Shown here piece by piece: positions 11,741-17,824 of a stretch of 64,000 nt of DNA (the first letter of the stretch is position 1; every line of letters begins with the position of its first letter). Origin of the DNA: an uncultured Alcaligenaceae bacterium (GTDB lineage Bacteria; Planctomycetota; Planctomycetia; Gemmatales; Gemmataceae); assembly GCA_964444365.1 (NCBI GenBank), contig CAYUHJ010000009.1:5880-69879 (forward strand). The letters run 5' to 3'. Made by a program: the position numbers and the translations under genes. The notes under the pieces are model-generated. The model had not been told where the DNA came from and ran no database searches. It saw only the letters and a program-made list of their open reading frames with translations.

Positions 11741-11756
11741 TGGCACGCCGCGTGCT
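11741..11756 (+). promoter_or_regulatory. Sigma54-type -24/-12 promoter candidate
   Basis: TGGCACGCCGCGTGCT versus the consensus TGGCACG-N4-TTGCW: one mismatch, correct GG-N10-GC spacing. It is intergenic, 46 nt upstream of the ATG at 11802. Confidence 0.5.
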
Positions 11757-11801
11757 TCGAGATCCCACGGCTGGAACTGTCACATTCGAGAGAACCCTGT
11801 C

Positions 11802-12035
11802 ATGAAATACACCGGAATCGCCCTGCTCGTTCTGGGCCTGGGGATGGCGCTGTTCGGCGGTCTTTCTGCGGTCGCGCAGGCCGACTCCGTCGATAGCCGG
11901 CCGACAGACATGATGATCGGCAACATCCTGGTGCCGGTCGCGTTCGGGCTGATGGTCGGAACCGTCGGGGCGGCGATGTACTTCTACGGCGGGCGGGGGT
12001 ACATGCAGACGCGGAACCCCGCGGTGAGAAATTAG
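11802..12035 (+). CDS. Small two-TM membrane protein (77 aa, possibly DUF3185-like)
   Basis: The ATG at 11802 gives MKYTGIALLVLGLGMALFGGLSAV...ILVPVAFGLMVGTVGAAMYFYGG. Codon third positions are GC-rich and a sigma54-like promoter precedes it. Confidence 0.55.
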   Translation: MKYTGIALLVLGLGMALFGGLSAVAQADSVDSRPTDMMIGNILVPVAFGLMVGTVGAAMYFYGGRGYMQTRNPAVRN

Positions 12036-12163
12036 CGGCAAACGCTGTAAGGCCCGAACCGCCGGGCCGCTACAGACCGGTGTTCCCAGTCTCCCTGCTC
12101 ATCCCCCCGCCCCTGAGGGGTCTCGTCCCAACCCACGTTATCATCCGCTCGACACAGGACGGC

Positions 12164-13384
12164 TCAAGCGGATGGGTCACGTTCTTCGTCCGGGGGTTCA
12201 TCCCCCGGACGGTCTTTTCCGGCGAGCGGGAGGCGGACCACAAAGGTTGCCCCCAACCCGATCCCGTCACTGGCCGCGTCGATCGTGCCGCTGTGGAGTT
12301 CGACGAGCCGCTTGGCGAGGGCGAGGCCGATCCCGAGCCCGCCGTCGGTCCGGTTCAGGTTCCGGTCGACCTGGGTGAACAGTTCGAAGACGTGGGGCAG
12401 TGCGTCCGGGGGGATGCCGACGCCGGTGTCCCGTACCCGGACCGCGGCGTGGGAACCGTCTTGCGCGGCGGTCACCCGCACGTCCCCTCCGGACTCCGTG
12501 TACTTGGCCGCGTTGTTCAGCAGATTCGCGAACACCTGCGCCAGCCGGACCCGGTCCCCGCTCACCCAGATGGGGTCCGTCGGCAACTCTACGGCCAGCC
12601 TCAACCCGGCCTTGGTGAGTGCGGGGGTGCTCGCTTCGACGGCCACCTCGATCGGCTCGGCGAGGGACAGGCGTTCCTTGGTCAGCCGGAGTTTCCCGCG
12701 GGTGATGCGGGACACGTCGAGCAAGTCGTCGATGAGCCGGACCATCTGGCGGATCTGGCGGTCCATGATCTGCCGGGCCTGGTCGCCGGCGGCGGGGTTG
12801 GTCCCGCCGAGCCGGAGGATTTCCAGCGCGTTGCGGATGGGCGCGAGCGGGTTCCGCAGCTCGTGGGCGAGGGTGGCCAGGAACTCGTCCTTGCGGCGGT
12901 CCCCCTCGACGAGTGCCGCGTTCGCCCGGGCGAGTTCGGCCGTCCGCTCCCGGACCTGCTGGGCGAGGTCGGCCTCGTACCGCTTGCGGAGGAGGGCGTA
13001 CCGGACGGCCCGCTCCAGCAGGGTGGCGTCGAGCTTGCCCTTTTCCAGGTAGTCGTCGGCCCCGGCGGCGGCGGCCGCGAGGTCGATCTCCGACGCCGAC
13101 TGCCCCGTCAGCAGAATGATCGCGGCCGTCGACCCGGCCGTCCGGACTTCCGCCAGGAGGTCGAGCCCGGTCTTCGGCCCGAGCCGGTAGTCGAGCAGAC
13201 ACACGTCGTGCTGGCCGGCCAGGACGGCGGTCAGCCCGGACTCGTAGTCCGGTGCCCAGTCGAGCTTGTACCGGTCGCCGCGGATGTCGGCGAGCAGGTC
13301 CCGCGTCAGGACGTAGTCGTCGCGGTCGTCGTCGATCAGGAGCACCCGGACCGGGGGGCTACCGGGTAGGCTGTTCATCGACAT
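12164..13384 (-). CDS. Hybrid histidine kinase (REC-HisKA-HATPase_c)
   Basis: Receiver: VRVLLIDDDRDDYVLTRDLL...DVCLLDYRLG. H-box: FLATLAHELRNPLAPI. N/G boxes: NLLNNAAKYT and DTGVGIPP...GGLGIGLALAKRLVELHSG. Confidence 0.85.
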   Translation of the reverse strand: MSMNSLPGSPPVRVLLIDDDRDDYVLTRDLLADIRGDRYKLDWAPDYESGLTAVLAGQHDVCLLDYRLGPKTGLDLLAEVRTAGSTAAIILLTGQSASEIDLAAAAAGADDYLEKGKLDATLLERAVRYALLRKRYEADLAQQVRERTAELARANAALVEGDRRKDEFLATLAHELRNPLAPIRNALEILRLGGTNPAAGDQARQIMDRQIRQMVRLIDDLLDVSRITRGKLRLTKERLSLAEPIEVAVEASTPALTKAGLRLAVELPTDPIWVSGDRVRLAQVFANLLNNAAKYTESGGDVRVTAAQDGSHAAVRVRDTGVGIPPDALPHVFELFTQVDRNLNRTDGGLGIGLALAKRLVELHSGTIDAASDGIGLGATFVVRLPLAGKDRPGDEPPDEERDPSA

Positions 13385-16227: not shown

Positions 16228-16310
16228 GGCGACTCCGTCCCGTTCCGGTCTGCGAGAGGCGACCCGGTTGGTAGAATCCTAGCGGGCTACTCTTACACGT
16301 GGCAGAAATT

Positions 16311-16326
16311 TGGCGCGCCGCTTGCA
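16311..16326 (+). promoter_or_regulatory. Sigma54-type -24/-12 promoter candidate upstream of the NtrC-family activator
   Basis: TGGCGCGCCGCTTGCA versus the consensus TGGCACG-N4-TTGCW: one mismatch, correct GG-N10-GC spacing. It is about 70 nt upstream of the ATG at 16397 and has the same CCGC spacer as the 11741 site. Confidence 0.5.
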
Positions 16327-16396
16327 GGCAAATCTTCGCTCAGCAGGAAGCACGCTGCGTGCTCTCGAGAATCCCCCCGCCCGGGTCGAGCCGCTC

Positions 16397-17824
16397 ATGA
16401 CCGCTCCTTCCGTCCCCGCGTCCACTCAACGCCTCCTCGTGGTCGAAGACCTCGAAGACGCCCGCAACACCCTCCAGGAGATGCTCCGGCTGGCGCTCGG
16501 GGTCGAGGTCGACACCGCCGCCGACGGTGGGCAGGCGCTGGCCATGCTCGGCGAGCGGCCGTACAGCGTCGTCGTCACCGACCTGCGAATGCCGACGATG
16601 GGCGGGATGAAGTTGATCGAGGAGATTCAGACCCGGAAGATCTCGTCGACTGTCATCGTGACGACCGGCCACGGCGGCGTGCCCGAGGCGGTGCGGGCGA
16701 TGCAACTCGGGGCCTACAGCTTCTTGCTGAAGCCGCCCGACCCCGAGCACCTCTGTCTGCTCGTGAAGCGGGCGATGCGGGAACGGCAGCTCTTCGACGA
16801 GGTGGCGGCCCTGCGGGCGCAGCTCAAGTCCGACCGCGGGGCGTTCCAGAACGTGCTCAGCAAGAGCCCCCGGATGCACGACGTGTTCGAACTCGTCGGG
16901 CACATCGCCCCGACGCCGTCGACGGTCCTCATCATCGGCGAAACCGGCACGGGGAAGGAGCAGATCGCGCGGGCGATCCACCAGGCCGCCGGGGACACGC
17001 GGTCCGGCCCGTTCGTCGCGGTCAACTGCGGCGCGCTCAACGAAAACCTGCTGGAGAGCGAACTGTTCGGCCACGAGAAGGGCTCGTTCACCGGGGCCGC
17101 CGGCCAGCGGAAGGGCCGGTTCGAACTCGCGCACAAGGGGACGCTCTTCCTCGACGAGATCGGCGACGTGCCGGCCTCCATGCAGGTCAAGCTCCTCCGC
17201 GTCCTCCAGGAGCGCCGGTTCGAGCGGGTCGGCGGCACGGACCCGATCGAGGTCGACGTCCGCGTCGTCGCGGCGACCCACCAGAACCTCGAAAAGATGG
17301 TCAAGGACGGCACGTTCCGCGAGGACCTGTACTACCGGCTCAACGTGATCCGCATCGAACTCCCGCCGCTGCGGGAGCGGCCCGAGGACATCGCCCTGCT
17401 GTCCGCGCACTTCTGCGAGAAGTACGCCCGCGCCGGCCAGAACCCGCCCCAACTCAGCCCCGAGGCGATGCAGTTGCTGCTCGACTTCCCTTGGCCGGGG
17501 AATGTCCGGCAACTGGAGAACGCGATCGAGCGCGCGTGCATCACCGCGCGGGACGGCACGATCGTCCCGGCGAACCTGCCGCCCGACATCGCCCGCCCGC
17601 AGCCGTCGGCACGGAACGCCGCCCAGGTGGACCTCGGCCGGCCGCTGCCCGACCAGCTCGCCGAGATCACCGCGTCCTTCGAGGAGCGGTACCTGCGCCG
17701 GGCGTTGAAGCGGACCCGCGGCCACGTCGGGAAGTGTGCCAAGATCAGCGGCCTGTCCCGGCGGAGCATCACGGACAAGATCGCGCAGTACAAGATCGAC
17801 AAGTCCGAGTACAAGACCGGCTGA
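16397..17824 (+). CDS. Sigma54-dependent transcriptional activator, NtrC family (REC, AAA+, Fis-type HTH)
   Basis: REC: RLLVVEDLEDARN...VVVTDLRMPTMGG. Walker A: GETGTGKE. GAFTGA variant: GSFTGA. ELFGHEKG is present. C-terminal HTH: GHVGKCAKISGLSRRSITDKI. I preferred the start at 16397 because the ORF-track start at 16310 would lie inside the promoter motif. Confidence 0.9.
   Translation: MTAPSVPASTQRLLVVEDLEDARNTLQEMLRLALGVEVDTAADGGQALAMLGERPYSVVVTDLRMPTMGGMKLIEEIQTRKISSTVIVTTGHGGVPEAVRAMQLGAYSFLLKPPDPEHLCLLVKRAMRERQLFDEVAALRAQLKSDRGAFQNVLSKSPRMHDVFELVGHIAPTPSTVLIIGETGTGKEQIARAIHQAAGDTRSGPFVAVNCGALNENLLESELFGHEKGSFTGAAGQRKGRFELAHKGTLFLDEIGDVPASMQVKLLRVLQERRFERVGGTDPIEVDVRVVAATHQNLEKMVKDGTFREDLYYRLNVIRIELPPLRERPEDIALLSAHFCEKYARAGQNPPQLSPEAMQLLLDFPWPGNVRQLENAIERACITARDGTIVPANLPPDIARPQPSARNAAQVDLGRPLPDQLAEITASFEERYLRRALKRTRGHVGKCAKISGLSRRSITDKIAQYKIDKSEYKTG

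Follow-up and report, generated by a model that had tools for sequence, protein, structure and literature searches.

A putative sigma-54 regulon of membrane protein genes in a Gemmataceae contig, with a candidate promoter in the last codons of an AI-2E family gene

Genes of the locus and four sigma-54-type sites

We analysed a 64-kb stretch of contig CAYUHJ010000009.1 (positions 5,880 to 69,879; referred to here as the window) from a member of the Gemmataceae, with attention to four sequences resembling sigma-54 promoters and to the genes that surround them. The gene map, based upon codon-position GC content and Pfam, begins with g129 (9288-9677, minus strand), which codes for a protein of 129 amino acids, amphipathic and helical in its N-terminal part and with a membrane anchor at its C-terminus (RRYPIPALLVGFGVGLLLGR). 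It is followed on the same strand by an AI-2E family transporter (PerM-like; 9748-11622), a 624 amino acid protein with a fused B12-binding-like C-terminal domain, and on the plus strand by s77 (11802-12035), the product of which has 77 amino acids and two hydrophobic segments. Next come three minus-strand genes specifying a 406 amino acid REC-HisKA-HATPase kinase with an N-terminal receiver (12164-13384), a single-domain receiver identified with Pfam (13359-13922, although translation probably begins downstream of 13922) and a 795 amino acid sensor kinase of ETR1_N-DUF4118-PAS-PAS-HisKA-HATPase architecture (13840-16227; ETR1_N E = 2.8e-35). The sensor kinase gene is divergent from that of an NtrC-type enhancer-binding protein (16397-17824, plus strand; 475 amino acids from ATG 16397), called ntrC below, which contains REC, Sigma54_activat AAA+ and HTH_8 domains. 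An earlier note on this DNA had likewise taken 16397-17824 for an NtrC-family sigma-54 activator; the protein that it labelled a hybrid kinase is the REC-HisKA-HATPase protein, the N-terminal receiver of which sets it apart from the classical hybrid kinases.

Scanning both strands of the window with the pattern TGGCACG-N4-TTGCW gave four matches with at most one mismatch where 0.32 are expected, and none of 100 dinucleotide-preserving shuffles of the window gave four. They were named S1 (TGGCACGGGCCGTGCA; 9751-9766, minus strand), S2 (TGGCACTTCGGTTGCT; 11676-11691, minus), S3 (TGGCACGCCGCGTGCT; 11741-11756, plus) and S4 (TGGCGCGCCGCTTGCA; 16311-16326, plus). All four lie within 9.7-16.3 kb of the window, each with a single mismatch and with GG and GC exactly 10 nt apart, and each is correctly oriented towards a start codon, situated 73, 53, 45 and 70 nt 3' of the end of S1, S2, S3 and S4, respectively. 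Allowing two mismatches removed the enrichment (9 matches in the window vs 7.7 expected). The sites were also scored with a sigma-54 weight matrix, an approximate one modelled on the Barrios compilation and suited to ranking only, which gave 15.5 bits for S2, 14.5 for S1, 13.9 for S3 and 12.5 for S4; by the same approximate measure, shuffled windows contained 0.46 matches of at least 14 bits and 1.9 of at least 12 bits. S4 by itself is within chance expectation, while the cluster of four is beyond it; with 12.5 bits against 1.9 shuffled matches at its level, S4 therefore needs comparative evidence.

S3 and S4 are the two sites described in the earlier note, where their positions, single mismatches, GG-N10-GC spacing, intergenic location, orientation and distances to ATG 11802 (46 nt there, 45 nt counted from the end of the site) and ATG 16397 (about 70 nt) were correctly given. 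Its estimate of well under one chance match agrees with the computed value, and its caution that further matches may exist was justified, since S1 and S2, equally good and in the same locus, had been missed. In the matrix scan of the window, scores of S4 quality occur in coding DNA as well. The CCGC spacer shared by S3 and S4 is real but is not conserved in relatives, and is hence a coincidence. Nor do the two sites bracket the sensor locus as promoters of it, as had been suggested; the three kinase/receiver genes between S3 and S4 are on the opposite strand and therefore neither site transcribes them.

For comparison we assembled 13 further loci with DNA, from a metagenome scan with the AI-2E protein and from homologue look-ups; individual loci are given below as L numbers where they differ. 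The window matches contigs of biofilm metagenomes, and its closest relatives in the genome species collection are Zavarzinella and Fimbriiglobus (Gemmataceae; approximately 46-73% protein identity). Across the comparison loci the amino acid identity of the AI-2E protein falls from 92% to 47%. A core gene order is kept, with ntrC divergent from the kinase and receiver genes (HK-REC-(REC-HK)), followed by the AI-2E gene and g129; the activator is syntenic with the output genes in nearly all loci and the REC-HisKA-HATPase kinase in all of them. In a sub-clade the REC-kinase and AI-2E genes are separated by one more gene, which is small, divergent and s77-like.

S1 in the terminal codons of the AI-2E gene

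S1, with a predicted transcription start at approximately 9740, is the candidate -24/-12 promoter of g129. Its 16-mer falls within the final six codons of the AI-2E reading frame (GTT GGC ACG GGC CGT GCA), abutting the TAA stop, and each of the 13 syntenic loci with DNA has a site in the corresponding position. When the region from the AI-2E tail to g129 was aligned for 11 loci, the only invariant columns were TTGGCA.G....TGC and the start of g129. At the protein level the site reads as x-G-[T/M]-x-x-A, which occurs in the last 16 residues of 115 of 120 AI-2E homologues, compared to 0.5% of internal 16-residue windows.

An alternative is that this tail is kept for the AI-2E protein itself, as a V-G-T-x-x-A peptide serving, for example, as a sorting or interaction tag, with the likeness to a promoter incidental and g129 co-transcribed from S2. 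The motif is indeed coding, its G-T and A are the residues conserved in the 115 homologues, and, no terminator having been found between the AI-2E gene and g129, transcription from S2 could physically continue into g129. What a peptide would not account for is the choice of codons. The first residue of the motif varies (V, I, L, F or N), whereas its codon ends in T (GTT, ATT, CTT or AAT) in 13 of the 13 loci with DNA; AAT and CTT were predicted for L093 and L094 before those sequences were retrieved, and both predictions were borne out. T-ending codons make up only 3-21% of the V/I/L codons in the same genes. Likewise, the terminal alanine is encoded by GCA or GCT in 12 of 13 tails (0-36% usage in the genes tallied) and the codon preceding it ends in T in all 13, so that, together with ACG, synonymous positions are fixed to the promoter consensus despite a strong codon bias. 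Moreover, the motif ends anywhere from 0 to 8 residues before the stop and is thus not a fixed C-terminal tag, and a Fimbriiglobus ruber paralogue with no g129 downstream has neither the tail nor the S1 site.

Because the NNT and GCA/GCT codons are fixed against codon bias whatever the first residue, S1 is under selection on its nucleotides and not only on the peptide. A metatranscriptome contig from a root sample, 99% identical to the window, spans 9376-9717 and covers g129, and no metatranscriptome contig was found over the AI-2E gene. The contig stops 23 nt short of the start predicted for S1, at 9717, and fits g129 as a transcription unit of its own, a contig end being distinct from a mapped 5' end. 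We consider conservation of the tail for the sake of the peptide alone very improbable. We rather favour the reading that the Gemmataceae family of AI-2E proteins with a B12-binding-like domain has a dual-coding C-terminus, (V/I/L/N)-G-T-x-x-A, selected as a sigma-54 promoter for the next gene and not for the protein's own function, and we hold this with reasonable, though far from complete, confidence. If it is correct, a promoter can be read in protein databases as a C-terminal peptide motif, and in S1 coding and regulatory constraint cleanly overlap, in a form that annotators would take for a conserved peptide tail.

Sense -24/-12 promoters inside coding sequences, conserved across species and serving the next gene, have been described in E. 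coli, in nagB (for nagE), yqeC (for yqeB) and rlmD (for relA) (Bonocora et al. 2015, PMC4591121). S1 resembles these, but differs in being in the very last codons and abutting the stop, in having a predicted 5' untranslated region (UTR) of about 63 nt as opposed to 360-760 nt, and in a constraint that shows itself throughout the family as a C-terminal peptide in which rare codons are forced.

The predicted S1 transcript contains, at about +4 to +20, a dyad CGTCA-N7-TGACG (9721-9737) that is unique in the window; the end of the metatranscriptome contig lies 4 nt beyond it. It is found at the same place, with the sequence of both arms kept, in L081, L085, L086, L088 and L090, and might act as a stem-loop at the 5' end or as a site for a protein. 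Folding of the g129 5' UTR gave z = 0.67, a sigma-70 promoter and terminator scan of 9-18 kb was uninformative, and Rfam had no match in the window.

The two proteins that flank S1 were examined further. The AI-2E protein belongs to PF01594 (168 bits; Pfam gathering cutoff 34.3). Its C-terminal B12-binding match scores 28.2 bits, below the cutoff of 32.1, and this domain (window 9748-10300) reads ACAARHEADEV where cobalamin-binding domains show DxHxxG; both observations make cobalamin binding doubtful. g129 falls below the gathering score of DUF883/ElaB-YqjD (PF05957), the best E-value being 0.009 in two of five orthologues, and its likeness to ElaB/YqjD is one of architecture only.

The S2-S3 pair and the ntrC upstream region

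S2 is predicted to start transcription of the AI-2E gene at approximately 11665, and S3 that of s77 at approximately 11767. The two sites are back-to-back, with 49 bp between them in the window. S2 is kept in 11 of 12 further syntenic loci (the exception being L082) and is also found upstream of the F. ruber paralogue. S3 is kept wherever the small gene occurs, in eight further loci, as YGGCAC-N6-nTGCW in seven of them and in a looser form in L093. An alignment of the region for six loci left, as invariant non-coding columns, only GGCA and TTGC of S2 and the matching columns of S3. Six positional homologues of s77 align, and its first hydrophobic segment may be a signal peptide ending in AQA.

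The gap between S2 and S3 is 22-89 bp across loci, and a pair in Limnoglobus is only 13 bp apart. This leaves no room for a common enhancer between the sites, and enhancers, if any, would therefore be inside the flanking genes. The spacer of the window (11692-11740) contains an inverted repeat, GGGCGA-N5-TCGCCC, and that of L081 (7001-7048) contains GGGGAG-N7-CTCCCC; these may be chance occurrences in GC-rich DNA. The earlier note had proposed a search for shared upstream activator sites, and we carried out four such searches on 20-23 upstream regions, looking for shared inverted repeats, shared 7-8-mers, 4-5-nt dyads and, after masking of the promoter sites, a palindromic expectation-maximization (EM) motif. 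None revealed a shared site; they returned chance words or coding conservation only, such as ACCGGAATCGCC, which encodes the TGIA start of s77. Such tight back-to-back pairs raise the question of where the activator binds. If the promoter assignments are correct, pairs 13-89 bp apart with no detectable enhancer would point to an unusual delivery of the activator in planctomycetes.

The sites fall into two groups at two positions. At -15, T is present in 11 of 11 S2 and S4 sites and in none of 17 S1 and S3 sites (window and orthologous sites from L081-L094), and at -20, G is present in all S1 sites and in only one of eight S2 sites. These differences give the regulon two promoter flavours.

S1 and S3 also contain the exact palindrome GCACG-N3-CGTGC, which suggests another explanation, namely that the motifs are sites for a dimeric transcription factor, possibly the NtrC-type protein itself at enhancer sites, and not sigma-54 promoters. 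In its favour, the exact palindrome occurs four times in the window (S1, S3, 16350-16362 and 56195-56207) vs 0.43 expected, S3 would be placed some 85 bp before the start predicted for S2, as is typical of an enhancer, and palindromic versions recur in S1 of L086 and in both S1 and S3 of L091. Against it, most orthologous S1 and S3 sites have lost the palindrome, among them S3 in L081 (CGGCACGCAGACTGCA) and L090 (TGGCACAAATACTGCT) and S1 in L087, L088, L082, L084, L092 and L093, whereas GG-N10-GC and TGGCAC are retained; at up to one mismatch the palindrome is not enriched (7 vs 9.3 expected). We therefore take the palindromic appearance for a variant of the promoter sequence, and we rejected a palindromic factor site as the main explanation, judging it very improbable. 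The copy just downstream of S4 (16350-16362; GCACGCTGCGTGC) has decayed in L081, and in L088 its counterpart by alignment is the start region of the activator, with Shine-Dalgarno and ATG-ATG. This copy is thus probably left over from a 5' UTR or from N-terminal codons and not an operator. The remaining copy (56195-56207) lies 8 nt upstream of the start of a minus-strand gene (55138-56187) and has no sigma-54 features.

S4, the last of the four sigma-54-type sites, has a predicted start at approximately 16337 and a non-consensus G in place of A at -22. Upstream of it the window has an extended -10-like box, TGgTAGAAT (16270-16278, plus strand), which is the candidate housekeeping promoter of ntrC. 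Among nine relatives covering the ntrC upstream region, homologous sites were identified in three, L081, L088 (TGGCCCGCTTCTTGCA) and, in a looser form, L082 (TGGTATCGTTGTTGCT); no counterpart was found in L083, L084, L092, L001, L002 or L059. A TAnAAT-type -10-like box occurs about 35-40 nt before the ntrC ATG in L001, L002, L083, L084 and L092. S4, and S4 only, might be a chance match in GC-rich DNA, with ntrC transcribed solely from the sigma-70-type TAGAAT and no autoregulation. The modest score of S4, the 1.9 matches that shuffled windows give at that level and the G at -22 would agree with this, as would the six orthologous loci that are devoid of an S4-like site, most of which have the -10-like box that the window keeps. 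On the other hand, the L088 site (14.6 bits) is at the same relative place despite diverged flanks, the looser L082 site scores 14.4 bits and both are preceded by a similar A/T-rich stretch; a match of at least 14 bits on the right strand in a 130-230-nt spacer is expected approximately 1e-3 times per locus. We regard chance as an unlikely origin of S4, although one with appreciably more in its favour than the alternatives considered for the other sites. Since the window retains the TGgTAGAAT box upstream of S4, ntrC is probably served by two promoters, a basal one and, 3' of it, a lineage-specific one of the sigma-54 type. The autoregulated activator of the earlier note would accordingly hold for the window, L081, L088 and, more loosely, L082, but would not extend to the six orthologous loci in which S4 is missing.

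The start of the activator was also considered. TTG 16310, which would place S4 inside the coding sequence, was rejected as the ntrC start owing to an in-frame stop in the homologous stretch of L088. The codons ACG CTG CGT GCT CTC GAG AAT CCC CCC GCC (within 16352-16396), preceded by a Shine-Dalgarno-like AGGAAG, align with the N-terminus of the L088 activator, MMRAVEQPPA (ATG ATG). The window activator may begin with a non-AUG codon, CTG 16355; alternatively, its first residue may be encoded by ATG 16397, 14 residues having been lost.

The activator, the proposed regulon and known systems

Pfam analysis of the activator revealed Response_reg (3e-25), Sigma54_activat (7e-73), AAA_lid_14 and HTH_8 (2e-8) domains. 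Its loop, GSFTGA, is one substitution from GAFTGA, and it belongs with the NtrC-type proteins. It is below every NCBIfam equivalog cutoff, including those of AtoC (470 vs 714 bits), NtrC (423 vs 559) and ZraR (345 vs 760).

From the motif cluster and its conservation we propose, as the probable reading, that the locus is a genuine sigma-54-dependent regulon attached to a phosphorelay. The sensor kinase, receiver, REC-kinase and ntrC would have basal expression from ordinary promoters, the candidate for ntrC being the conserved TGgTAGAAT box. Following the established mechanism of the NtrC family, a signal would lead the relay to phosphorylate the receiver of the activator, which would then oligomerise and use ATP to open closed complexes of RNA polymerase and sigma-54. 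S2 would thereby direct synthesis of the AI-2E/B12-domain membrane protein, S1 that of the tail-anchored g129 and S3 that of the 77 amino acid protein with two predicted membrane segments, while S4 would, in this lineage only, act on the activator gene itself as a second promoter, 3' of the basal one, and thereby create positive feedback. Synteny is the basis for supposing that the kinases nearby act on the receiver of the activator. The mini-regulon of the earlier note thus survives as a sigma-54 regulon, but one with four promoters, and S1 and S2, which it did not include, serve the most widely conserved outputs; s77, its single output, is supported by the eight further loci that keep S3 along with the gene, but is one of three.

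A number of points weigh against this reading. The weight matrix is approximate; S4 has a low score, a non-consensus -22 position and a quality that recurs in coding DNA of the window, and is missing from more than half of the orthologous loci. A functional C-terminal peptide could explain part of the conservation of S1, the RNA support consists of one assembled contig from another sample, and the promoters are assigned to the neighbouring activator through conserved synteny, with no upstream activator site shared among the regions searched. Finally, no RpoN box was found within the window, the source of which is a metagenome-assembled genome. With regard to the last point, the supplement of PMC12316311 lists rpoN for 32 of 33 genomes of Planctomycetia, Gemmata massiliana and Frigoriglobus tundricola among them.

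The outputs are without exception small or integral membrane proteins, and from this we would speculate that the regulon serves an envelope or membrane adaptation response, its logic being comparable to that of Psp or Zra. As in the ZraPSR system of E. coli and Salmonella, an NtrC-type activator and divergent two-component genes are accompanied by sigma-54 promoters driving a small envelope protein; zraP is named as sigma-54-dependent (PMC4591121) and autoregulation of its operon is ascribed to the ZraPSR regulator (PMC12316311). The present locus differs in that the outputs have no homology to ZraP and the activator is well below the ZraR cutoff, in that an ETR1_N-PAS kinase serves as the sensor and two further proteins take part in the relay, and in that the divergent promoters are back-to-back, 22-89 bp apart, with no activator sites identified between them.

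The arrangement proposed for ntrC resembles the tandem logic of glnAp1-glnAp2 in the NtrBC system, although here the arrangement is only inferred. In that system a housekeeping-type promoter and then a sigma-54 promoter act on one gene and provide basal and induced expression of the regulator. Unlike NtrBC, the locus has no nitrogen metabolism genes, and the activator falls short of the NtrC equivalog cutoff. In the Psp response (PspF-pspA), small membrane-associated stress proteins are under sigma-54 control; no PspA homologue is present here and the outputs are not homologous to PspA. The architecture of g129 is like that of ElaB among the E. coli ElaB/YqjD/YqjE proteins, being helical N-terminally with an anchor at the C-terminus, and in orthologous loci further sigma-54 sites precede YqjE-like and ElaB-like genes. 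The genes for ElaB/YqjD/YqjE in E. coli depend upon sigma-S and not sigma-54.

For the Planctomycetota, knowledge of sigma-54 regulons comes almost entirely from predictions with matrices (PMC12316311), and surveys of this kind in Planctomycetia already predict sigma-54 promoters before NtrC-family regulator genes and stress genes (PMC12316311), the same publication (PMC12316311) containing no mention that we found of AI-2E or ElaB. The present locus offers a small, well-conserved and testable example, with a sensor relay, one activator, three to four promoters and uncharacterised membrane protein outputs, the unusual detail of which is the terminal-codon promoter S1. The RNA run search for the S2/S3 and S4 regions found none.

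The input side of the relay differs among relatives. In some orthologous loci the first kinase is without ETR1_N and begins with DUF4118-PAS, and in others it is much longer (1092-1349 amino acids) with CHASE3/GAF domains. The sensory input thus varies, and the relay and the outputs are constant.

Several other high matrix matches in the window are intragenic and were set aside, namely 22252-22267, 15030-15045, 36828 and 28110. The first of these (TGGCATACTTTCTGCT, minus strand) has the best score in the window, 17.8 bits. It is contained in a Ser/Thr protein kinase gene (21897-23723), in the part for the kinase domain, and represents either a sigma-54 site within a gene or a match by chance. 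The second (TGGTTCGGGACTTGCA, minus strand; 14.1 bits) recurs in L081, L087 and L084, and is without the CA of TGGCA. It encodes a conserved PAS-domain peptide, QWFGTCTD, and since its conservation is coding it is probably not a promoter.

Relatives contain additional strong sigma-54 sites before genes for small membrane or stress-like proteins (YqjE/holin-X-like, ElaB-like and apolipoprotein-like). These are located in L083 at 580-595 and 1643-1658, in L089 at 7166-7181 (minus strand), 7320-7335 (plus) and 8926-8941 (plus), and in L056 at 490-505 (minus) and 519-534 (plus). They are often back-to-back divergent pairs, 13-140 bp apart, and in a Limnoglobus metagenome-assembled genome one such site precedes a histidine kinase operon. 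L084 also has a long perfect hairpin (approximately 9800-9880) after the REC-kinase stop and before the S2 equivalent, which fits a terminator placed between the kinase operon and the transcription unit of the AI-2E gene in this relative.

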